Shown: positions 1 through 20,730, numbered from the stretch's first letter. The stretch: DNA of 24,000 bases from Alkalihalobacterium alkalinitrilicum (GCF_002019605.1 NZ_KV917368.1:2735517-2759516); one strand, 5' to 3'. Numbers and translations are program-made. The notes: generated by a model from the sequence alone, not told the origin.

Positions 1-394
1 CTAAATACCCAATCGCTGCATCATATTCTTTTTCTAACTGATCGAAAGAACTCCTTAAAAACTTCCAAGTATACTGTTCTGATCGATCGCTATTTTTAGA
101 GTATCTGTTTTTTAAAGTGAACATCACCCTGTTATAAGCTAAATTTATTTGACTATTTTTTATAAAATGCTCAATAGAATGCTTGAAACTTTTTGTGAAA
201 TAAATATATCTTAATGGTAAATCTAATATAGCAACCTCTTTTGGGATAGTGTTAAAGAACAGTCCAGTTTGACTAAATAAAAACAAATCAACATTATAGT
301 TGTTATAATCAATCTGCTGTAACAAATTGACTAGACTCTTCTCCCCACCCCCCGCAGATAAGCTAGGCATCACAAATAGTAAGTTTTTCTTCAT
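1..394 (-). CDS. Glycosyltransferase family 4 (GT-B fold), N-terminal 131 codons only; the gene continues past the left edge
   Basis: Absent from the ORF track because there is no stop in the window. Minus-strand ATG at 394-392 with GAGGT 7 nt upstream; the frame stays open to position 1. Translation MKKNLLFVMPSLSAGGGEKSLVNLLQQIDYNNYNVDLFLF... parallels the N-terminus of the GT4 at 2629-3879 (MKKVLIASFDMEVGGVERSLISMLENFDYENYKVDLMLY), so the two look paralogous. Confidence 0.7.
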   Translation of the reverse strand, partial: MKKNLLFVMPSLSAGGGEKSLVNLLQQIDYNNYNVDLFLFSQTGLFFNTIPKEVAILDLPLRYIYFTKSFKHSIEHFIKNSQINLAYNRVMFTLKNRYSKNSDRSEQYTWKFLRSSFDQLEKEYDAAIGYL

Positions 395-9045: not shown

Positions 9046-9948
9046 TCAACTATTTTTTAATACTGTCGCCTTACCTGTATTTTGAATATACAAGTAAAGT
9101 AAAATTCCTAGTGGTGTTGCAAGAAATGTCGTCATTTTACAAGGTGACTCTAATAGAAATTTGTAGTTTTTAACCATGAGATTACTTGAAACATAGTGTA
9201 TGGATTCTCTGACTCTATCCTTAAAAGTTGGTGCATATTTCATTGCAACCTTTCTAAAAAAAGAAAAACCGCGGGGGTTTTTCTTATATTGCTTAATTAT
9301 ATTCATACTAGAACCATCATTTAGGTATTCCACGTGACATAATACTTCATTCATTATAAGTAACGGGAATTCTTGATCAATTAAAATATACTTATAACTT
9401 AATGGACAGTATTTTTCACCTGGGAATAACGGATACGGTGGTGTTTTTCTTGTAAGTTCCGTGCGATAAACGAGCTTTTTATCACCTTTCACTTTGTGCT
9501 TTCCGTATAAGTCAGAAAGTGGTGCACTCTTCAAGCGCTCTGGTAGTTTTGTTCCTATGATTTCACCATCTTGAGTAGCATCGAGTCCTACAATGCCCGC
9601 ATAATCCTTACTGCCATATTGCCTCCAAAACGTTAAAATCTTTTCAACTGCATCATCCGCCATATAATCGTCTGAATCAATGCACACATTAAGTTCCGTT
9701 TCAATTAATTCATACGCTGTATTATGAGCACCATGCATTCCTTGGTTTTCTTGATAGTGATAATGAATGGGAATAGCTCCTTCTAACATCCAACTTTCGA
9801 CGAGTTCCCTTGTATTATCAGTTGACCCATCATCGATTATTAACCATACGAAATCTTTACAAGTTTGTCTCTTCAAACTCTCATAACACAAGTGAAGACA
9901 ATAGGCTCGATTAAATGAAGGTGTAAACACCGTTAATGTTGCATTCAT
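9046..9948 (-). CDS. Glycosyltransferase family 2
   Basis: LTVFTPSFNRAYCLHLCYESLKRQ...LIIDDGSTDNT...IDSDD (DxD). GGAGG RBS 9 nt upstream of the ATG. Confidence 0.8.
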   Translation of the reverse strand: MNATLTVFTPSFNRAYCLHLCYESLKRQTCKDFVWLIIDDGSTDNTRELVESWMLEGAIPIHYHYQENQGMHGAHNTAYELIETELNVCIDSDDYMADDAVEKILTFWRQYGSKDYAGIVGLDATQDGEIIGTKLPERLKSAPLSDLYGKHKVKGDKKLVYRTELTRKTPPYPLFPGEKYCPLSYKYILIDQEFPLLIMNEVLCHVEYLNDGSSMNIIKQYKKNPRGFSFFRKVAMKYAPTFKDRVRESIHYVSSNLMVKNYKFLLESPCKMTTFLATPLGILLYLYIQNTGKATVLKNS

Positions 9949-12167: not shown

Positions 12168-13296
12168 TTTCTTCCTCCAGCATATAGCGTGTGTAGATGG
12201 TGCTTAGTTCTTGACTGATTTGTGAGAGGGAATAGGTGTTCATTAGGTTTATACTCGCTGCTCCCATTTGGCTTCGTAAGTCGGTATTTTGATAAATTCT
12301 TAGCAAGCCTCTCGCAAACTGCCCGTAGTCATGAGGAGATACGAGATAACCGTTCACTTGATCCTGAACGAGCTCGACATGGCCACGATTTTTACTTGCG
12401 ACAATCGGTAGTCCGCAGGCCATCGCTTCCATAATGTTGACGGGAAGCCCTTCTCTAAAGCTTGATCCGACAGCAATGTCACACATGGGAAGGATTTGGT
12501 CGATATCTTTTCGAAAGCCGAGAAAAACGACCATATGTTCAATTCCTAGTTGTTTGACGAGCTGCTTACAGCTTTCTTGAAGAGCGCCTTCGCCAGCGAG
12601 TAACAGCTTCGCGTTTGGCATATAGTCTTGAACTAAAGCAAGTGAGCGGATTAGCAATTGTTGGTTTTTATTTTTGTTAAATTCAGCTGCATAAAAGATG
12701 AAAAAGTCATCTGGATGATAGCCAAATGACTTTTTGCGTTCGCTTTTTTCAGTTTCAGTGATTGGTTTAAAGCGCTCTGTATCAACCCCCACTCCGTGAA
12801 CATGGTCGACTTCAATTGCTTTAAACTTGTGATGATTGGCTAATTGATAATCTTCTGCGTTGATCGTGATCAGACAATCGGTATACTTTGCCAACTGCTT
12901 TTCAATCGGATAATAGATGAGCCAATTTAAAGTGGGCGCTCCTTTACAAAAGTGAAAGCCATGTGCTGTATAAAGGACTTTTGTTCCAGATTTTCTAGCT
13001 TTTCGTGCGGCTAGCCTAGCAAGAACGCCTCCTAGCGGTGTATGACAATGGATGATGTCATAATCGTTTTCTTTAATAATTGCTTTTATTTGTTGATACG
13101 CCTTCACATTTTTCAACTTAAAAGGAGAGCGTTGAATTGGGATCCTAAACTTTTGATCCGTATACGGTAAATCAATTTCACCTTTAGCTGCGATGTGCAC
13201 TTCCCAGCCTTGCTCCTTAAACCATTTCATAAACGGTAAGTGAAAAGCCTTGAAATGATAGTCAACGGTTGCACAAAACAAAATTTTTTTAGGCAT
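12130..13296 (-). CDS. epsD: Glycosyltransferase family 4, EpsD-like
   Basis: The N-terminus KKILFCATVDYHFKAFHLPFMKWFKEQGWEVH is nearly identical to recalled B. subtilis EpsD. It also has the GT-B C-terminal EGLP motif. Confidence 0.82.
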   Translation of the reverse strand: MPKKILFCATVDYHFKAFHLPFMKWFKEQGWEVHIAAKGEIDLPYTDQKFRIPIQRSPFKLKNVKAYQQIKAIIKENDYDIIHCHTPLGGVLARLAARKARKSGTKVLYTAHGFHFCKGAPTLNWLIYYPIEKQLAKYTDCLITINAEDYQLANHHKFKAIEVDHVHGVGVDTERFKPITETEKSERKKSFGYHPDDFFIFYAAEFNKNKNQQLLIRSLALVQDYMPNAKLLLAGEGALQESCKQLVKQLGIEHMVVFLGFRKDIDQILPMCDIAVGSSFREGLPVNIMEAMACGLPIVASKNRGHVELVQDQVNGYLVSPHDYGQFARGLLRIYQNTDLRSQMGAASINLMNTYSLSQISQELSTIYTRYMLEEENETKSQYHHAHI

Positions 13297-14216: not shown

Positions 14217-16043
14217 TTAACTTGGGATTGTCAATAGTGGTTTAACGGAAACTTTGTTATTTGCTAAATTCAATAAAGCTTCCCTCAGTGTGTCTTTATC
14301 TAACTTTGAATAATTTTTAATAATCTCTTCAATTTCGGTCATGTAAAGTACTGATGTTTTTCCGATATAAATCATTGGATATACTTGCTCTTCTTGAACT
14401 TCTTCTTCTTTTAAAAGTTCTTCAAATAACTTCTCGCCTGGACGCATGCCACTAAATTCAATTTCGATTTCCTCTAGTGAGTTGCCCGATAATTTGATCA
14501 AGTTTTTCGCCAAGTCTACAATTTTGACAGGTTCGCCCATATCTAACACGAAAATTTCTCCGCCTTTCGCTAATGCTCCAGCTTGGATGACTAGGCGAGA
14601 AGCTTCTGGGATCGTCATAAAATAACGAACCATATCAGGGTGTGTTACCGTGACAGGTCCGCCTTTTTCAATCTGCTTTTTAAATAATGGGATGACGCTT
14701 CCTCGACTTCCTAATACGTTACCGAAACGGACAGCAACGAACTTCGTTTGGCTTTGATTATTCATATCTTGAATAATCATTTCTGCTAATCGTTTCGTAG
14801 CACCCATAACACTCGTTGGATTGACAGCTTTATCGGTTGAGATCATCACAAAGGTATCGACATGGTGTAAACTAGCTGCCATTGCTACATTCCTCGTACC
14901 GATTAAATTATTTTTGACAGCTTCTTCAGGGTTTCTTTCCATTAACGGAACATGTTTATGAGCAGCTGCATGATACACGACATCTGGATGATATGTATTC
15001 ATCACGGTTAGCATTTTATTGGCATCTTGTAAGTCGGCAATCTCAGTAATAAAATCAATATTCGTATGGACAAACGTCTCCTTTAATTCCATCTCAATCG
15101 AGTAAATGCTATTTTCGCCATGACCTAATAACACTAACTGCTTAGGATTAAAGTTTGAGATTTGCCGACACACTTCAGAACCAATTGAGCCTCCCGCACC
15201 TGTTACTAGAACGACCCTGTCAGTGATATATCCAGAAATTTTATCAATGTCGAGTTGGACAGGCTCACGGCCGAGTAAGTCCTCAACTTGGACATCGCGG
15301 AATTGATTAACTGAAACCTTTCCGGTGACAAGATCCTCTAACATCGGCATGATTTGCGCCTTTGCCTTTGTTTTCACACAAGCTTGAAAAATATCATTTA
15401 ACTCTTTTTTACTTAATGAAGGGATGGCGATGATAATATTTTCAATGTTTAACTTATTTACTGTTTCCTCGATTCCACTCGAACCACCAACGACAGGTAT
15501 TCCTAAAATATCTAATTGTTGTTTTTTCATATCATCATCAATAAAAGCAATAGGTAGTAACTCCCCGTCATTACTTTTTAAAAGTTGTCTCGCAACCATC
15601 GTTCCCGCAGAACCAGCACCGATGATGAGCGTTCTTTTTTTATTGTCTTCTTTATTCATATACGTATCACGATACATTCGCCAAACAAAGCGAGAACTTC
15701 CAATGAGTAAGATATGAAGCATCCACGTGATCGCTAACACGCGCAAGAATGTTTCTTGCAGGAAAAATTGCTGAACTAAAAATGCAGTAAGAATTGAAAA
15801 GGTAACGACTTTAAAAATGATTAATAGTTCCCCAATGCTCGCATACTCCCAGGCTTTTTTATACAGCTTTAGTACAATCGCAAAGAAATGATGACTCACT
15901 AATATAACGATTAGACTAGTAATGATCGGTAGTGTAAAAAAATTCAAGTCTGCTTTAACGAGAAAATGGCTGACAAAGATCGCCGTTAAAACAATACATG
16001 AATCAATGAGTATAAATAAGGAAAGCCTTTGCCGATACGTCAT
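14217..16043 (-). CDS. epsC: Membrane-anchored polysaccharide biosynthesis protein, UDP-GlcNAc 4,6-dehydratase type (EpsC/CapD/PglF-like)
   Basis: Four N-terminal TM helices followed by two Rossmann regions (IIGAGSAG; VTGAGGSIGSE). Also has the CapD-like core (YHAAAHKHVPLME, MISTDKAVNPTSVMGATKR). AGGAGGGG RBS. Confidence 0.9.
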   Translation of the reverse strand: MTYRQRLSLFILIDSCIVLTAIFVSHFLVKADLNFFTLPIITSLIVILVSHHFFAIVLKLYKKAWEYASIGELLIIFKVVTFSILTAFLVQQFFLQETFLRVLAITWMLHILLIGSSRFVWRMYRDTYMNKEDNKKRTLIIGAGSAGTMVARQLLKSNDGELLPIAFIDDDMKKQQLDILGIPVVGGSSGIEETVNKLNIENIIIAIPSLSKKELNDIFQACVKTKAKAQIMPMLEDLVTGKVSVNQFRDVQVEDLLGREPVQLDIDKISGYITDRVVLVTGAGGSIGSEVCRQISNFNPKQLVLLGHGENSIYSIEMELKETFVHTNIDFITEIADLQDANKMLTVMNTYHPDVVYHAAAHKHVPLMERNPEEAVKNNLIGTRNVAMAASLHHVDTFVMISTDKAVNPTSVMGATKRLAEMIIQDMNNQSQTKFVAVRFGNVLGSRGSVIPLFKKQIEKGGPVTVTHPDMVRYFMTIPEASRLVIQAGALAKGGEIFVLDMGEPVKIVDLAKNLIKLSGNSLEEIEIEFSGMRPGEKLFEELLKEEEVQEEQVYPMIYIGKTSVLYMTEIEEIIKNYSKLDKDTLREALLNLANNKVSVKPLLTIPS

Positions 16044-16066: not shown

Positions 16067-16210
16067 TTAATCTAGGGATAACGTCCTTCTTTCAATTGCA
16101 TATTCGACTAGTTTTTTGATCTCATCAAGTTCCTCTTGCGATGCATCTTGCTTTATATAACGAATTGCCTTCTTTATCGACTTAGGCAATCGATCAAAGT
16201 CTTTGGTCAT
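16067..16210 (-). CDS. Hypothetical 47-aa protein immediately upstream of epsC
   Basis: Below the track cut-off. ATG at 16210 with GAGGAG 7 nt upstream; TAA at 16069-16067, only 23 nt before the epsC ATG. Peptide MTKDFDRLPKSIKKAIRYIKQDASQEELDEIKKLVEYAIERRTLSLD. No family recognised. Confidence 0.45.
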   Translation of the reverse strand: MTKDFDRLPKSIKKAIRYIKQDASQEELDEIKKLVEYAIERRTLSLD

Positions 16211-16239
16211 ATCAACACTCCTCACTTTAGTTGGGAATT

Positions 16240-16305: not shown

Positions 16306-16415
16306 AGGGCATCTAACCCCTCCTCACACCATACTATCGACGACTTGCGTCTAAGGTTTGTCAACCCACAGCATGACCGAGTACCTCCGTTGATAATGGT
16401 AAGGAGGTATCACCA
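16306..16415 (-). ncRNA. Candidate EAR (eps-associated RNA / epsC motif) processive-antitermination element
   Basis: It lies in the epsB-epsC intergenic gap, where EAR sits in Bacillales eps operons, and is locally GC-rich compared with its AT-rich flanks. On the minus-strand RNA there is a hairpin GAUACCUCC (16411-16403) / GGAGGUACUC (16388-16379). Its 14-nt loop segment ACCAUUAUC can pair with the downstream GAUAGUAUGGU (16338-16328), giving 9 bp with a 2-nt bulge, i.e. a pseudoknot. Small hairpins GGUUGACAAACC and GACGCAAGUCGUC are also present. I did not compare it with the Rfam model. Confidence 0.4.
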
Positions 16416-16436: not shown

Positions 16437-16458
16437 ATTATAATTCTCAATAAAGAAC
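16437..16458 (-). promoter_or_regulatory. Sin-type operator variant abutting a TATAAT hexamer, 20 nt downstream of the epsB stop
   Basis: Plus strand ATTCTCAATAAAGAAC (16443-16458) differs at one base from the reverse complement of the box at 20585-20600. On the minus strand it is followed directly by TATAAT (16442-16437). The -35 is poor (CTTAAC). Confidence 0.3.
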
Positions 16459-16478
16459 GTTAAGGTAAAAAAATATAG

Positions 16479-17174
16479 TTATGATTTTTCGTTTATAATC
16501 GCTCCGATCAGCTCGGCTTTGGCAAATTTTAAAACTTTCTTGGCCTCAACCGCTTTTTCGATCTTACTTTTACCATGTCTTAAAACTAGAACGACCGTCT
16601 TACATTGATTGGCTAAAAGCTTTGTATCTGATACTTCTAATAAAGGTGGTGAATCTATTAATATAACATCGTAGGATTGGGAAGCCGTTTCTAGTAAGCG
16701 AGAAAATGCGTTCGACCCTAATAACTCTGCTGGATTATCGGGGAGCGGTCCACTCGTTAACACCTCTAATTTCCCTATATTCGTTTCTTTCACCGCTTCT
16801 TCAAACCAGTTTTGATTCGTTAATACCGATGATAAACCTAGTGAATTATCGAGTTTAAAAATCGAATGAATTCTTGGGCTTCTTAAATCAGCATCAATGA
16901 TGAGAACTTTTTCTTTTTGTTGTGCGATGGAAACCGCTAGATTGGCAACTGTTGTTGATTTTCCCTCTTGTAAAGATGGAGACGTCATCAAGATAGTCTT
17001 ACTCGGCTTTTCATTTGCTGAAAATTGGATATTGGTTCGAATCGTTCGAAATTCTTCTGTAATAATCGACTCTGGGTTGGAAAATGTGATTAAATTTCGT
17101 TTTTGATTTTTATTAGTTATAACACTTTTAAGTCTTTTTAAGATCAACAATCTCACCTCGGTATTCTGTTTCAC
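16479..17174 (-). CDS. epsB: BY-kinase-type P-loop ATPase (EpsB/YwqD/CapB-like), without a C-terminal tyrosine cluster
   Basis: EEFRTIRTNIQF, Walker A (SPSLQEGKST), Walker A' (VLIIDADLR) and Walker B (DVILIDSPP). The track start at 17174 is a GTG. A TTG at 17147 has better spacing from GAGGTGA. The protein ends ...LIGAIINEKS. Confidence 0.82.
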   Translation of the reverse strand: MKQNTEVRLLILKRLKSVITNKNQKRNLITFSNPESIITEEFRTIRTNIQFSANEKPSKTILMTSPSLQEGKSTTVANLAVSIAQQKEKVLIIDADLRSPRIHSIFKLDNSLGLSSVLTNQNWFEEAVKETNIGKLEVLTSGPLPDNPAELLGSNAFSRLLETASQSYDVILIDSPPLLEVSDTKLLANQCKTVVLVLRHGKSKIEKAVEAKKVLKFAKAELIGAIINEKS

Positions 17175-17829
17175 GATGCTTCTTCTTTTTCTTATTAATA
17201 TTCTTTTTATTCATTTTTGAAACAGAGCCTAATATGGGAAGTCCTATTAATTCTTCTACGTCTCGATCCGAGCTAACTGTATCATCCAGAGAATTTAGTA
17301 AAAATACAAAGCCTGTTCCAATGACAAGTCCCATAATAAACGCAATATATATTGTTCTATTACTTTTACTATTGATTGGATATGGATTTACTTTCGCTTC
17401 AGACAAATAACTGACATCGTTAAAATCAACAATTTCTCCAATCTCATTTTTAAAAACCGTTGCAGTAGTATTGGCAATCTCTGCTGCTAAATTCGGATCT
17501 GTATCTATGACTGAAATTCTGACGACTTGTGAATTATCGATACTTTCAACCGTAATTTGCCCTGCTAATGCTTCTGGTGATCTCGTTAAGTTCAGTTCCA
17601 TGACGACCTTTTCCATGATAATCGAATCTCTCATAATAACTCTAAGTGTGTTCATATAATCTGAACTTGCACCTACGATTATGCGACTAGATGATTGGTA
17701 GAGAGATGTGATACTTGAAGAATTTTGAAAGTAGCCAGCAATTGTAGCAATCATCGTAATGACAACAATTATCCAAAAACGCTTTTTTATAATGAGAAAT
17801 ATTTCTCTTAAATTAATTTCTTTTGCCAT
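17128..17829 (-). CDS. epsA: Wzz/chain-length-determinant type transmembrane modulator (EpsA/YwqC/CapA-like)
   Basis: N-terminal TM helix (FWIIVVITMIATIAGYF), periplasmic-type middle region, second TM helix (IYIAFIMGLVIGTGFVFLL) and a basic cytoplasmic tail (KKNINKKKKKH). The track TTG at 17844 is rejected in favour of the ATG at 17829, which has GGAG 6 nt upstream. Confidence 0.82.
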   Translation of the reverse strand: MAKEINLREIFLIIKKRFWIIVVITMIATIAGYFQNSSSITSLYQSSSRIIVGASSDYMNTLRVIMRDSIIMEKVVMELNLTRSPEALAGQITVESIDNSQVVRISVIDTDPNLAAEIANTTATVFKNEIGEIVDFNDVSYLSEAKVNPYPINSKSNRTIYIAFIMGLVIGTGFVFLLNSLDDTVSSDRDVEELIGLPILGSVSKMNKKNINKKKKKHRETEYRGEIVDLKKT

Positions 17830-17869
17830 ATCGTTCTCCACCAACTTATTATTTGATTACTTTAGTGTA

Positions 17870-17885
17870 GTTCTCTTTAAAGAAC
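17870..17885. promoter_or_regulatory. Sin-type operator in the eps leader (GTTCTCTTTAAAGAAC)
   Basis: 16-bp imperfect palindrome (12/16 self-complementary) containing the published B. subtilis SinR consensus GTTCTYT. It lies 41-56 nt upstream of the epsA ATG. Confidence 0.5.
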
Positions 17886-17991
17886 AGTAAGACCAAAAAA
17901 ATTTGAAATAAATCTTATTTCCTACGAATTAAGTTTAATGTCTTAGTCATATAGAACTAATTGTTCAATTTGGAAAAATATTTCTAATGTC

Positions 17992-18020
17992 ATTTTAGTT
18001 CTTTATAAAGAACATGTCAA
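17992..18020 (-). promoter_or_regulatory. Sigma-A-type eps promoter with a perfect Sin-type palindrome in the spacer
   Basis: The minus strand reads TTGACA (18020-18015), then T + GTTCTTTATAAAGAAC (17-nt spacer, box at 18013-17998), then TAAAAT (17997-17992). The -35 is canonical with a 17-bp spacer, and the -10 matches 5/6. Confidence 0.6.
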
Positions 18021-18033
18021 TAGAAAAGTTTCT

Positions 18034-18399
18034 TTATTCGCAAAATTCATTATGGCTTACTTTCTTACTTTGATTTTTCATATGATCCAACTTTTGAATC
18101 ATATCTCTTAGTTCTTCTAAACTAATATTTTTTCGTTTCATTTCTTCGGTTAGGTGGATGAGTTGGATATCTACTACGTTTTCTTTAGTACTTGTCTTAC
18201 TTTGTCCATTAAAAAAATAAGCGATATCAATTTTAAAGTAGTTTGATAGACTTTCTAAAACTTCAATAGCAGGCTTCCGATTTCCGCGTTCAATTTTTGA
18301 TAAATTACTATAATTAAATTCAATTGCATCCCCTAATTCTTTTAATGTCATCCCATGGCTTAGTCGCAAATCTTTAATTCTCTCTCCAATATGCTTCAA
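18034..18399 (-). CDS. XRE-family HTH regulator with a C-terminal Sin-like helical region (SlrR-like candidate)
   Basis: N-terminal HTH_3 pattern (IKDLRLSHGMTLKELGDAIEFNYSNLSKIERGNRKP). The C-terminus LIHLTEEMKRKNISLEELRDMIQKL loosely resembles the SinI/SinR interaction helices. TTG start at 18399 supported by GGAGTGAG 6 nt upstream. It sits next to epsA, as slrR does in B. subtilis. Confidence 0.7.
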   Translation of the reverse strand: MKHIGERIKDLRLSHGMTLKELGDAIEFNYSNLSKIERGNRKPAIEVLESLSNYFKIDIAYFFNGQSKTSTKENVVDIQLIHLTEEMKRKNISLEELRDMIQKLDHMKNQSKKVSHNEFCE

Positions 18400-18438
18400 T
18401 ACTGTCTCACTCCATTACTTCTTAAATAATCCGCTTTC

Positions 18439-18497
18439 GTTCGTTACAAAGAACACAGTTTCGCTGTTACTATACCATGGATTGTCAAATTGAACAA
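18439..18497 (-). promoter_or_regulatory. Putative extended -10 promoter of the XRE gene plus a downstream Sin-type box
   Basis: Minus strand: TTGTTC (18497-18492), 17 nt, TGG-TATAGT (-10 at 18474-18469, TGn extension). Box GTTCGTTACAAAGAAC (18439-18454, 12/16 palindromic) lies just downstream of the predicted start. A further variant GTTCTTTTTATAGAGC sits at 18516-18531. Confidence 0.35.
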
Positions 18498-18649
18498 TAT
18501 ATAACTTTAGATTTTGTTCTTTTTATAGAGCTTTTTTTGTGAAAATCACATATTTCTATATATTAATTTACATTAATTGAACAAAAATACCACTAAAACG
18601 AATGCTTTGAAAAAAATGTTAAATTATATAATTTTTTTACAACTAACTA

Positions 18650-18681
18650 TTGTAATTACTTATCTGTTCTATATAATGAAC
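18650..18681 (+). promoter_or_regulatory. Putative promoter of the first sinI-like ORF, overlapped by a Sin-type box
   Basis: TTGTAA (18650-18655), 16 nt, TATAAT (18672-18677). The box GTTCTATATAATGAAC (18666-18681, 12/16 palindromic) contains the -10. Confidence 0.4.
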
Positions 18682-18719
18682 ATATAGATGTTATTTCATA
18701 TCGATGGGGGACGATATAT

Positions 18720-18878
18720 ATGAAGTATATTCAACCAATAAATCAAGTTAGAACACTCGATGAGGAATGGATCCAACTTATAAAATGTGCAAAAGACATC
18801 GGCCTCAAACCTGATGATGTAAAAAAATTTCTAGGTCAATTCGAAAAGGACAAAAAAATAGCACAAAACAAAAACTAG
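18720..18878 (+). CDS. SinI/SlrA-like anti-repressor, 52 aa
   Basis: Not in the ORF track. Peptide MKYIQPINQVRTLDEEWIQLIKCAKDIGLKPDDVKKFLGQFEKDKKIAQNKN. It carries the Sin interaction motif LDxEWxxLIxxAKxxGLxxxxVKKFL seen in B. subtilis SinI (LDQEWVELMVEAKEANISPEEIRKYL). GGGGG lies 9 nt upstream. Confidence 0.7.
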   Translation: MKYIQPINQVRTLDEEWIQLIKCAKDIGLKPDDVKKFLGQFEKDKKIAQNKN

Positions 18879-18914
18879 ACTTAATTCGTAATATACATTA
18901 TGAATTAAGTCTAG
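18875..18914 (+). terminator. Hairpin after the first sinI-like ORF (possible weak intrinsic terminator)
   Basis: Perfect 13-bp stem CTAGACTTAATTC (18875-18887) / GAATTAAGTCTAG (18902-18914) with a 14-nt loop, followed by TTTC. The stem is AT-rich and the U-tract short. Confidence 0.4.
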
Positions 18915-19153
18915 TTTCAAAAGACCTTTACTCTTCTAATTTTTATTTTACTATATTTACACTATTACTAATTTAGTAATACATATAGGTATTTATAACT
19001 ATAAAATAATTCTCTTGATCTAGGAAAACCTTGTAGAATTTTTGCTTTTTTTCGTATATTTACACCTAAACTAATACGAAATGACAATTTCTTAACTACT
19101 AAAAACCAACAGCAAGACCTGTACCATGCGTCTTTAATCTTCCCATAAGTAAA

Positions 19154-19160
19154 TGTCGAA
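19154..19160 (+). promoter_or_regulatory. Exact Spo0A-box consensus heptamer TGTCGAA
   Basis: Exact match to the 0A-box consensus TGNCGAA, about 200 nt upstream of sinI. In B. subtilis, sinI is Spo0A-activated. A single 7-mer could occur by chance. Confidence 0.3.
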
Positions 19161-19362
19161 TGGATAGCATGACTATATTTATGACTTCAGTAACTAATAT
19201 CTTTTCCAAATTTTATATATAATTAATTTAACCTTAATATTGGACGTTTTAATTTATGTAACATGGCACTCTTAAAAATCTGAATATTCTCAATAATTAA
19301 GTGAATACCTACACCATTGTTAAAGGATAATAGGCCTGTTTTAAGATTAGGGAGGTAATATC

Positions 19363-19485
19363 ATGAATACTAAGACCCATGAGGTTTTAGACAATGAATG
19401 GACAGCTCTTATGAGGGAAGCAAAAGATCTAGGAATAACGATTGAGGAAGTAAAGGAATATCTTAAAAACAGTAGAAAGACATGA
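19363..19485 (+). CDS. sinI: SinI anti-repressor, 40 aa
   Basis: Not in the ORF track. Peptide MNTKTHEVLDNEWTALMREAKDLGITIEEVKEYLKNSRKT with the LDxEWxxLMxEAKxxGIxxEEVKxYL motif. GGAGG RBS at 19351-19355. It lies 81 nt upstream of sinR, the canonical sinI-sinR arrangement. Confidence 0.82.
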   Translation: MNTKTHEVLDNEWTALMREAKDLGITIEEVKEYLKNSRKT

Positions 19486-19492
19486 CCTCTCA

Positions 19493-19528
19493 GTTCTATT
19501 TACAGAACTAGCTTAAAACTGTTATAAT
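19493..19528 (+). promoter_or_regulatory. Internal sinR promoter (P3-like) overlapped by a Sin-type box
   Basis: TTTACA (19499-19504), 18 nt, TG-T-TATAAT (extended -10, hexamer at 19523-19528). The box GTTCTATTTACAGAAC (19493-19508, 12/16 palindromic) covers the -35. Confidence 0.45.
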
Positions 19529-19566
19529 TCCTATAAGTACACAGGTTAAGAGAGGAATCGATACAG

Positions 19567-19902
19567 ATGATCGGTGAAAAAGTCAAGAAATTACGCTTAG
19601 AAAAGGGCTTATCTTTATCTGAACTAGCAGAATCTGCTGGAGTTGCAAAGTCTTACTTAAGTTCAATTGAAAGAAACATCCAATCGAATCCTTCGATACA
19701 ATTCCTTGAAAAGATCTCAAAAGTTTTAGGTGTAAGCGTCGAGACCGTATTAAACGAAAATAATGAAAAACAATCGGTAACCGAATACGACCTAGACTCT
19801 GCTTGGATCGAGTTAGTCAAAGAAGCTATGGAGTCAGGTGTGAGTAAAGAGCAATTCCGTGAATACTTGGAATTTAATAAATGGCGTAAACACAATAGTT
19901 AA
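19567..19902 (+). CDS. sinR: SinR master biofilm repressor
   Basis: 111 aa, collinear with recalled B. subtilis SinR: MIG...KGxSLSELAExAGVAKSYLSSIERNxQxNPSIQFLEKxSxVLxVSV and C-terminal SGVSKxQFRExLxxxKWRK. Confidence 0.92.
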   Translation: MIGEKVKKLRLEKGLSLSELAESAGVAKSYLSSIERNIQSNPSIQFLEKISKVLGVSVETVLNENNEKQSVTEYDLDSAWIELVKEAMESGVSKEQFREYLEFNKWRKHNS

Positions 19903-19962
19903 ACTCCATTATCTCCCCTTTAGCAACCAAAGAAAACAATATTTAACAAGTCCGTTTTCAAT

Positions 19963-20004
19963 AAAAAAATACCCCGCCTCATTACATCGAGGTGGGTTAT
20001 TTTT
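19963..20004. terminator. Bidirectional intrinsic terminator shared by convergent sinR and the HTH-only gene
   Basis: A-tract (19963-19969), stem CCCGCCTC (19973-19980) / GAGGTGGG (19989-19996) with an 8-nt loop, then TTATTTTT. On the minus strand the stem has one A-C mismatch but is followed by U7. It overlaps the last codons of the minus-strand ORF. Confidence 0.7.
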
Positions 20005-20212
20005 CTTCTGGGGTATTCAAAACCTTAATTAAATAAACAAGTTCAACACCAAGGGACTGTGCCAATTTTTCTAACACAGAAATGCTTGGATTAGTTTGTA
20101 GTCCACGTTCAATGTAACTGAGATATGACTTTGAAATACCTGACAGCTCTGAGAGTCGATCTAAAGACATTCCTTTCTTTTTTCGTAACTCTCTAATATT
20201 CCCCCCATTCAT
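19997..20212 (-). CDS. HTH-only SinR paralog (71 aa XRE-family DNA-binding domain, no C-terminal Sin interaction region)
   Basis: KGMSLDRLSELSGISKSYLSYIERGLQTNPSISVLEKLAQSLGVEL aligns residue for residue with the SinR HTH region encoded at 19567-19902. The protein stops about 10 aa after the HTH domain. AGGAGAG RBS 6 nt before the ATG. Confidence 0.75.
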   Translation of the reverse strand: MNGGNIRELRKKKGMSLDRLSELSGISKSYLSYIERGLQTNPSISVLEKLAQSLGVELVYLIKVLNTPEEK

Positions 20213-20247
20213 TTGTATCTCTCCTTTTTATTATGATCATCGCCCTC

Positions 20248-20260
20248 AAAAAAAAAAAAA
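20248..20260. repeat. A13 (T13 on the transcribed minus strand) homopolymer
   Basis: Thirteen consecutive A bases between the stop of the 95-aa ORF (20263) and the RBS of the HTH-only gene. Confidence 0.9.
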
Positions 20261-20262
20261 CT

Positions 20263-20550
20263 CTAGTATACTTCAAATCTCATTTCGTAGTAATAATCAT
20301 CCGTTTGATTTTTTTTTATTGAAGTAAGGATCATACCGTATATTTCAATTCCGTCTAACAATTTTAATGACACTTTATAAATTACATCCTCTGAAACTGG
20401 AAACTTTAAAGAACTTATAAATATTAGTGATGTTGTTGTAAATTCAACTATTTCTACTTTTGTACATTTAGAGTCGACAACCTTTCCTTTCACGACATGA
20501 ATGATGAGCTCTGCTTGAATGGGGTTGTCAATTGTAAATTCCGTCGTCAA
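20263..20550 (-). CDS. Small beta-rich protein, degenerate PilZ-like (tentative)
   Basis: 95 aa. TTG start with a strong AAGGAGG 8 nt upstream. Alternating beta-strand pattern ...KVEIVEFTTTSLIFISSLKFPVSEDVIYKVSLKLLDGIEIYGMILTSIKK....YYYEMRFE resembles the PilZ barrel (DxSxxG-strand, hairpins, final Y.F strand). It lacks the RxxxR and DxSxxG c-di-GMP motifs. Confidence 0.55.
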   Translation of the reverse strand: MTTEFTIDNPIQAELIIHVVKGKVVDSKCTKVEIVEFTTTSLIFISSLKFPVSEDVIYKVSLKLLDGIEIYGMILTSIKKNQTDDYYYEMRFEVY

Positions 20551-20584
20551 TTACCTGTCCTCCTTAAAAGTTTTTTACACCACT

Positions 20585-20630
20585 GTTCTTTATAGAGAAT
20601 ATTATAGTTTATTTGTTCTTTATAGTAAAC
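20585..20630 (-). promoter_or_regulatory. Putative promoter of the 95-aa ORF bracketed by two Sin-type boxes
   Basis: Minus strand TTTACT (20629-20624), 17 nt, TATAAT (20606-20601). Box GTTCTTTATAGAGAAT (20585-20600) abuts the -10 and covers the predicted start. Box GTTCTTTATAGTAAAC (20615-20630) covers the -35 and spacer. The boxes share TGTTCTTTATAG as a direct repeat exactly 30 bp apart. Confidence 0.45.
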
Positions 20631-20730
20631 GATATAATAGTAACTAGTTCATTAAAATGAAATCAGGTCTTTTATACTAAGTGATTACACTTTTGTTTTT
20701 ACTAACTTATTTATATAAGGCTCGTTTTAA

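Follow-up and report, generated by a model that had tools for sequence, protein, structure and literature searches.

Nine 16-bp palindromes, clustered over 4.2 kb of the Alkalihalobacterium alkalinitrilicum genome, are probably operators of the repressor SinR, whose gene lies among them. They belong to a stretch of 24,000 nucleotides (GCF_002019605.1 NZ_KV917368.1:2735517-2759516), hereafter referred to as the window, in which positions are counted from the first letter. Together, the nine sites would form the core of a SinR regulon; at some of them, the local helix–turn–helix (HTH) paralogues of SinR perhaps act instead of SinR or in addition to it. The boxes are found at the predicted promoters of an eps operon, of a sinI paralogue, of sinR itself and of two transcription units coding for the HTH paralogues, and also within the eps operon, in its leader and upstream of an EAR RNA.

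A family of nine palindromes

The initial annotation of this DNA had listed nine 16-mers, and direct reading of the sequence shows that the letters and positions of all nine are exact. The window contains five exact GTTC-N8-GAAC, compared to 0.23 expected, and none of 100 shuffles reaches five. When up to three mismatches are allowed, the perfect palindrome of the family, GTTCTTTATAAAGAAC, has 10 matches in the window for 0.44 expected. The tenth match (12963-12978) lies inside a coding region, scores 9.4 bits with a position weight matrix (PWM), and is probably due to chance. Since the boxes sit in AT-rich spacers, a test was run on the non-coding segments only (about 2.7 kb; the G+C content of the intergenic DNA is 29.7%). 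Dinucleotide-preserving shuffles of these segments give a mean of 0.06 boxes and a maximum of 2 in 2000 shuffles, while 9 are observed.

The symmetrised PWM was scanned over the 24,000-nt window, and 1.56 Mb of related loci were used as a substitute for a genome-wide scan. In the window, the nine boxes score from 17.3 to 25.4 bits (12.4 to 24.7 bits in a leave-one-out procedure). The best match outside the family, at 107-122, scores 15.2 bits and lies within a glycosyltransferase open reading frame (ORF); all remaining matches are at or below 10.6 bits.

The half-sites were initially described as exact or approximate copies of GTTCTYT, which is confirmed: 10 of the 18 half-sites are perfect, and each box has at least one half-site with no more than one mismatch. 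Lone GTTCTYT half-sites are found 18 times in the window for 10 expected, and half of them are within the palindromes; the palindrome, rather than the single half-site, is the meaningful unit. The LexA/Cheo box, whose motif is GAAC-N4-GTTC, was rejected as an identity for the family, its half-sites being in the opposite order and at another spacing.

The family is conserved in relatives. A SinR scan of species-representative genomes returned 80 loci (L-numbers below designate related loci). The closest relative, L001, whose SinR is 89% identical, has all nine sites, and L002-L004 have most of them. In the alignments, the boxes appear as conserved islands in diverged intergenic DNA. Equal frequencies in coding and intergenic DNA had been named at the outset as the outcome that would speak against a regulatory role; in the 1.56 Mb of related loci, the density of GTTC-N8-GAAC is 0.018 per kb in coding DNA and 0.27 per kb in non-coding DNA, with peaks within 1 kb upstream and from 1 to 1.5 kb downstream of sinR.

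SinR as the probable binder of the boxes

The half-site recognized by Bacillus subtilis SinR is GTTCTYT, and an inverted pair is bound about 10-fold more tightly than tandem or single sites (PMC3163267). One validated inverted site, SinR-1 of kinB, consists of two 7-mers (nt -57/-51 and -48/-42) separated by a 2-bp spacer, that is 16 bp (PMC5733473). The geometry of the window family, an inverted repeat GTTCTYT-N2-ARAGAAC, is equal to that of kinB SinR-1. Moreover, the box at 17870-17885 (GTTCTCTTTAAAGAAC) is identical, letter for letter, to a 16-mer of the tapA promoter in a contig of the B. subtilis group (L081, which carries a sin-tapA locus), and the tapA promoter of Bacillus licheniformis has three such boxes. 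Papers that cite Chu 2006 count the tapA promoter among the validated targets of SinR.

The sinR gene of the window (19567-19902, plus strand) codes for a protein of 111 aa with an HTH_3 domain (Pfam, E = 2.7e-17) and a SinI-type C-terminal domain (E = 9.8e-15). The sequence is 100% identical to that of an A. alkalinitrilicum protein and matches B. subtilis SinR (PDB 1B0N/3ZKC) with E = 2.9e-40. Residues 16-49 are those of B. subtilis SinR except for K23S, L38I and T40S, and the recognition helix is the same in the two proteins. This helix, AKSYLSS[IL]ERN, is invariant in nearly all of 84 orthologues, two of which carry Ala or Met at one position. Because the recognition helix is conserved, the DNA specificity is expected to be conserved too, and the SinR encoded in the window is likely to be the protein that binds the boxes. 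The SinR-operator reading of the initial annotation is thus supported by the geometry of the sites, by the box identical to that of the tapA promoter, by the recognition helix, and by the footprints of the boxes at the promoters which that annotation had named.

Boxes at the eps, sinI and sinR promoters

Promoter-like matches are not enriched in the AT-rich region that contains the boxes (16 found, 22.5 expected); the promoter calls given below therefore rest on the conservation of the hexamers across species.

The predicted eps promoter (TTGACA-17-TAAAAT; 17992-18020, minus strand) matches the promoter consensus at 11 of 12 positions, and its spacer is filled by the perfect palindrome GTTCTTTATAAAGAAC (box O-eps1, 17998-18013). 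Four Alkalihalobacterium species share the block TTGACA-n-GTTCTTTATAAAGAAC-TAAAAT without any change, and the same arrangement of promoter and box recurs in Halalkalibacter suaedae (L008). A second box, O-eps2 (17870-17885), is a conserved block with diverged flanks in the eps leader, between the predicted start site, about 100 nt before it, and the ATG of epsA (17829), which follows after about 40 nt. The first two genes of the operon, both on the minus strand, code for an EpsA-like Wzz protein (17128-17829) and an EpsB-like tyrosine kinase (16479-17174).

The window contains two sinI genes. The first one (18720-18878, plus strand) codes for a paralogue of 52 aa (Pfam SinI, E = 3.5e-11). The promoter scan places its promoter at 18650-18681 (TTGTAA-16-TATAAT, plus strand), and the box GTTCTATATAATGAAC (18666-18681) contains the -10 hexamer TATAAT. 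All 16 positions of this box are identical in the window, L001, L002 and L004, where the flanks have diverged, and the identical 16-mer is also found in L003. In H. suaedae, which has a sole sinI, a box is located just downstream of the -10 hexamer of that gene.

The second sinI (19363-19485, plus strand; 40 aa; Pfam SinI, E = 3.5e-13) is directly upstream of sinR, and no box is found in the 480 bp that precede it. Two other blocks in this upstream region (about 19178-19232), TATGACTTCAGTAACTAA and TTTTATATAT, are invariant in five species. A Spo0A-type TGTCGAA at 19154 is kept only in L001, and three such boxes per window is the chance level.

Between this sinI and sinR, the promoter scan detects a sinR-proximal promoter (TTTACA-18-TGtTATAAT; 19493-19528, plus strand), whose -35 hexamer TTTACA is contained in the box GTTCTATTTACAGAAC (19493-19508). 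A 16-mer with at least seven of the eight GTTC/GAAC end letters is present from -130 to -21 relative to sinR in 52 of 84 loci, compared to 3.1% of control windows taken at random from the same loci. The box is at a roughly fixed distance from the extended -10 across genera; it is found in Alkalihalobacterium, Halalkalibacter, Oceanobacillus, Virgibacillus, Halobacillus, Lentibacillus, Robertmurraya and Cytobacillus, and also in Bacillus methanolicus.

Three loci of the B. subtilis group have the extended -10 and no box upstream of sinR. In the B. subtilis and B. licheniformis loci, neither a box nor a half-site is found between sinI and sinR, which agrees with the earlier suggestion that this locus would differ from the B. 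subtilis model in its autoregulation and in the control of a sinI paralogue by the same operator. Since the box is present in 52 of 84 loci and absent from the B. subtilis group, the predicted autorepression of sinR would be a real difference from that model. In the collection of papers that was searched, no report of SinR autoregulation or of a SinR box at sinR was found for any of the Bacillaceae.

Other elements of possible regulatory interest are found around sinR. In L026, L030, L042, L044 and L056, a cyclic di-GMP (c-di-GMP)-I riboswitch (about 9650-9770) precedes sinI and lies 230-350 bp upstream of sinR, and in L007 such a riboswitch (16961-17054) adjoins a second sinI-like gene; the window has none. 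A link between this riboswitch and sinI has already been reported for B. methanolicus (PMC4342826). On the other side of sinR, a G+C-rich hairpin with T-runs (19973-19996) separates the gene from the convergent HTH gene described below; it is likely to be the terminator of sinR, and is perhaps bidirectional.

The HTH paralogues and their promoters

Convergent to sinR, the minus strand carries the gene of a PilZ-like protein of 95 aa (20263-20550) and that of an HTH-only SinR paralogue of 71 aa (19997-20212). This pair is kept convergent to sinR in Alkalihalobacterium and Halalkalibacter. The promoter scan predicts a promoter for the operon (TTTACT-17-TATAAT; 20585-20630, minus strand) which bears two boxes: that at 20615-20630 lies over the -35 hexamer, since it contains TTTACT, and that at 20585-20600 abuts the -10 hexamer and covers the predicted start site. 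The conservation of the promoter and of the box abutting its -10 extends to Halalkalibacter, in which this box is an exact GTTC-N8-GAAC. There is also a degenerate third box, GTTCATTAAAATGAAA (20647-20662; 4 mismatches, 10.1 bits). Its aligned counterparts are strong in L001 and L005, with 1 mismatch to the consensus, and weaker in L003 and L004, with 3 mismatches. The 71-aa protein aligns to the DNA-binding domain of SinR (E = 5e-14), and its recognition helix, SKSYLSYIERG, is one position off the pattern of SinR and SlrR.

The name "PilZ-like", given to the 95-aa protein from the start, is supported by the predicted fold, but not by a sequence family or by c-di-GMP-binding motifs. The AlphaFold2 model, which is based on a shallow alignment of 6 sequences (mean predicted local distance difference test score of 81.7), is a six-stranded beta-barrel whose top Foldseek matches in the PDB are PilZ domains (BcsA, MotI, VCA0042, PP4397 and MrkH, with template modelling scores of 0.63-0.68 and E values from 3e-3 to 0.1). 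The protein belongs to no Pfam family and has no match to Pfam PilZ even at E ≤ 10, the word-index search returned only six homologues, and the sequence and the 6-sequence alignment show neither of the c-di-GMP-binding motifs RxxxR and D/NxSxxG.

The second paralogue is a 121-aa HTH protein of the XRE family, whose gene (18034-18399, minus strand) was initially labelled SlrR-like. This label is not borne out: the protein scores 30.1 bits against the SlrR equivalog of NCBIfam, the cut-off of which is 250, no SinI domain is detected in it even at E ≤ 10, and its gene has the orientation of eps, unlike the divergent slrR of B. subtilis. By eye, its C-terminus is faintly similar to the SinI helix, and its recognition helix, NYSNLSKIERG, is substantially unlike that of SinR. 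The putative extended -10 of the gene (TGgTATAGT; 18469-18477, minus strand) was recognized by eye and not called by the promoter scan, and its TATAGT hexamer diverges in L002 and L004. Two boxes bracket it: GTTCGTTACAAAGAAC (18439-18454), a conserved block at about +8 to +23 of the predicted promoter, and GTTCTTTTTATAGAGC (18516-18531), at about -54 to -69, which reads GTTCTTTTTATAGAAC in L001 and L002 and GTTCTCTTTATAGAAC in L004.

A 14-mer, ATTGTTCAATTTGR, occurs exactly twice in the window. One copy is located at 17960-17973 (plus strand), in the eps leader; the other one, at 18485-18498 (minus strand), covers the -35 region of the gene of the 121-aa HTH protein and forms ATTGT-N8-ACAAT there. 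The two copies are kept in the Alkalihalobacterium relatives and not in Halalkalibacter; the 14-mer may be the site of a second regulator.

The statement of the initial annotation that almost all boxes are on promoter-like elements can now be made more precise. Five boxes (17998, 18666, 19493, 20615 and 20585) overlap or abut hexamers detected by the promoter scan, and two more (18439 and 18516) flank the extended -10 identified by eye and by conservation; on the contrary, those at 17870, in the eps leader, and at 16443, inside the operon and before the EAR RNA, are off promoters.

Several observations weigh against the idea that SinR alone reads nine dedicated operators. The 71-aa protein has a recognition helix nearly identical to that of SinR, and the window encodes two HTH proteins besides SinR. 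One half-site is weak in each of the boxes at 16443, 18516 and 20615, which could favour heteromers. In B. subtilis, SlrR prefers TYATATA half-sites and the SinR-SlrR heteromer prefers GTTCWTTATATRA; read on the minus strand, the box at 18666-18681 (GTTCATTATATAGAAC) matches the latter consensus at 12 of 13 positions. Last, three boxes share bases with a -35 or -10 hexamer, so that their conservation may be partly that of the promoters.

It may be, then, that some or all of the boxes are operators of the 71-aa protein, of the 121-aa HTH protein, or of heteromers of these proteins with SinR, which we consider improbable. The two or three boxes at the promoter of the PilZ-like/71-aa HTH operon would then be autorepression sites of the 71-aa protein, and the boxes that bracket the 121-aa gene promoter would be sites of the 121-aa protein itself. 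Autoregulation is common among repressors of the XRE family; YgzD, a small paralogue of SinR in B. subtilis, binds its own promoter and represses it (bioRxiv 10.1101/2025.01.06.631544). The distinct half-site preferences of SlrR and SinR-SlrR in B. subtilis are also consistent with this proposal, as is the location of the boxes in which one half-site is degenerate: they cluster at the promoters of the paralogues. However, in genera where sinR has no 71-aa HTH gene within 10 kb of it, the same box is found at promoters of sinR, of tasA-like genes and of eps; in one Oceanobacillus, for instance, which lacks such a gene within that distance, three boxes precede the tasA-like/sipW operon. The boxes at the promoters of the paralogues are indistinguishable from the others, the box abutting the -10 in Halalkalibacter being an exact GTTC-N8-GAAC, and the recognition helix of the 121-aa protein differs substantially from that of SinR. 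These arguments speak against an exclusive role of the paralogues, which may nevertheless bind some boxes, alone or in heteromers, above all at their own promoters.

The overlap with promoter hexamers suggests a second alternative, namely that the palindromes are a by-product of these hexamers and of an AT-rich composition, and are conserved as promoters. It is true that hexamers are found within three boxes (TTTACA in 19493, TATAAT in 18666 and TTTACT in 20615) and that the intergenic G+C content is low, as mentioned above. But the composition-matched shuffles give 0.06 boxes instead of 9, the GTTC/GAAC ends are conserved yet belong to no hexamer, boxes are found where no promoter exists (in the eps leader and before the EAR RNA), and the -35 sequence overlapped by the box upstream of sinR varies between genera, whereas the box itself is kept. 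This alternative is therefore very unlikely.

A box upstream of the EAR RNA

The EAR RNA, also called epsC RNA, is a processive antitermination element (Rfam RF01735). In the window it is found at 16306-16415 (minus strand), between the epsB-like and epsC-like genes, as a full-length match of 111.5 bits for a gathering score of 42. The box O-EAR (ATTCTCAATAAAGAAC, 16443-16458) lies inside the eps operon, 20 bp past the stop codon of the epsB-like gene and 27 bp upstream of the 5' end of the EAR RNA. The site at 16443 had been tied to eps in the initial annotation; it does belong to the eps operon, but it precedes the EAR RNA by 27 bp and is not on the eps promoter.

O-EAR is kept in L001, L002 and L004. 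More generally, a box is found 1-37 bp upstream of the EAR RNA in all seven genomic copies (window, L001, L002, L004, L007, L008 and L030). A metagenome scan with the EAR pattern returned 120 EAR loci (L084 onward), of which 99 could be scored after removal of duplicates: in 24 of these 99, a box is found no more than 80 nt upstream, compared to 1.27% of control windows (Fisher p = 7e-23). The EAR-proximal box is usually preceded by a T-run. No description of an association between a SinR-type box and EAR was found in the collection of papers searched.

An internal sigma-A promoter between O-EAR and the EAR RNA was considered and is not supported: the candidates of the window, TTGAGA-17-AAAAAT (9 of 12 positions) and a TATAAT that abuts the box, are conserved neither in L001, L002 and L004 nor in the metagenomic EAR loci.

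The location of some palindromes in transcribed DNA (17870 and 16443), and the fact that they are inverted repeats, could indicate that they act as RNA hairpins, either terminators or attenuators. However, the predicted hairpins are weak (-0.1 to -6.7 kcal/mol), most boxes are in non-transcribed promoter DNA, the boxes are found in both orientations relative to transcription, and it is the sequence itself that is conserved, not just the pairing, with no compensatory changes seen. We rejected this explanation, which is the least credible of those considered, on account of the weak folds and of the boxes in promoter DNA. As an operator, O-EAR could be an elongation roadblock or a looping partner. 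In B. subtilis, the intragenic attenuation sites of fla/che, which depend on SinR-SlrR, are likewise sites of the SinR family inside a long operon, downstream of its promoter, so that occlusion of the promoter cannot be the mechanism. The fla/che sites are SinR/SlrR hybrid half-sites within ORFs, whereas the window has an inverted repeat of the SinR type, located in the non-coding spacer directly before the EAR RNA.

Downstream of the EAR RNA, on the same strand, the operon continues with a conserved, highly charged ORF of 52 aa (16067-16225), probably 47 aa when counted from an ATG, and with the epsC-like gene (14217-16043). The small ORF is kept in L001, L002, L004, L007 and L008 (49-89% identity) and has no family match. 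At the left edge of the window, the DNA before position 405 is not intergenic: positions 1-392 (minus strand) code for the N-terminus of a further glycosyltransferase (MKKNLLFVMPSLSAGGGEKS...); since this ORF runs off the edge, the eps cluster extends past it.

Proposed mechanism and comparison with known systems

In the simplest mechanism, a SinR dimer would read the two inverted GTTCTYT half-sites, 2 bp apart, and occlude RNA polymerase at the promoters. Occlusion would take place at the spacer of the eps promoter, at the -10 of the first sinI, at the -35 of the sinR-proximal promoter, at the -35 and start site of the PilZ-like/71-aa HTH operon, and at the promoter of the 121-aa gene by means of the two boxes that bracket it. 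The boxes in the eps leader and before the EAR RNA would be auxiliary sites, which could serve as looping partners or as roadblocks to elongation. Pairs of boxes could be linked by SinR tetramers; the centre-to-centre distances calculated from the coordinates (128, 77 and 30 bp) have no consistent phase. The two SinI proteins would titrate SinR and thereby relieve repression. By repressing the sinI paralogue, whose product would inactivate it, SinR would be part of a double-negative, self-reinforcing loop, and by repressing its own proximal promoter it would exert negative autoregulation.

Systems of this kind are known; the wiring predicted here is a variant. The boxes have the same half-site and the same 16-bp inverted geometry as the SinR operators of B. 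subtilis (PtapA/yqxM, PepsA, PslrR, kinB SinR-1 and aprE), and like them they are at promoters of matrix genes. Unlike in B. subtilis, which also uses tandem and single half-sites, all boxes of the window are inverted repeats, and those found at the sinR promoter, at the sinI paralogue, at the PilZ-like/HTH operon and upstream of the EAR RNA have no counterpart at the B. subtilis sin locus. The SinI-SinR-SlrR switch of B. subtilis similarly involves the repressor, a small protein antagonist and a double-negative loop which can lock the matrix-ON state. However, the double-negative partner appears to be a second SinI (18720-18878) in the window, instead of SlrR, and the box at sinR predicts a negative autoregulation.

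The 71-aa protein and B. subtilis YgzD are both short XRE-type paralogues of SinR, and the promoter of YgzD has an operator and is repressed (bioRxiv 10.1101/2025.01.06.631544). Unlike YgzD, the 71-aa protein would be co-transcribed with a PilZ-like protein, from a gene convergent to sinR and a promoter that bears canonical SinR-type boxes. A more distant similarity is with the Cro/cI operators of phage 434, where a dimeric HTH repressor binds a site of about 16-20 bp with two-fold symmetry; the N-terminal dimer of SinR superimposes on the 434 Cro dimer. Here, on the contrary, the sites belong to a chromosomal developmental regulon, and no phage genes were found in the window.

Implications for the SinR switch

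SinR is a paradigm for bistable decisions between biofilm formation and motility, and the mechanistic knowledge about it comes nearly entirely from B. subtilis, where the transcription of sinR is treated as constitutive and positive feedback proceeds via SlrR. We tentatively propose, as a joint possibility that we hold to be open to serious doubt, that the B. subtilis circuit is a derived exception and that the eps operon has a second checkpoint at the box before the EAR RNA. If the first part is true, most other Bacillaceae would run a self-contained SinR/SinI toggle, in which SinR represses both sinR and a sinI: the paralogue in A. alkalinitrilicum, the only sinI in Halalkalibacter. If the second part is true, the box would be a roadblock or a loop anchor which decides whether RNA polymerase acquires EAR-dependent antitermination, and a DNA-binding repressor would thus be coupled to an RNA antiterminator.

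If the autorepression of sinR and the repression of a sinI by SinR, as predicted from the sequence, are confirmed, a term for negative autoregulation would have to enter the models of the switch (noise, pulsing, hysteresis) for most species. The recurrence of a box before the EAR RNA suggests that there may be a previously undescribed control point within eps operons.

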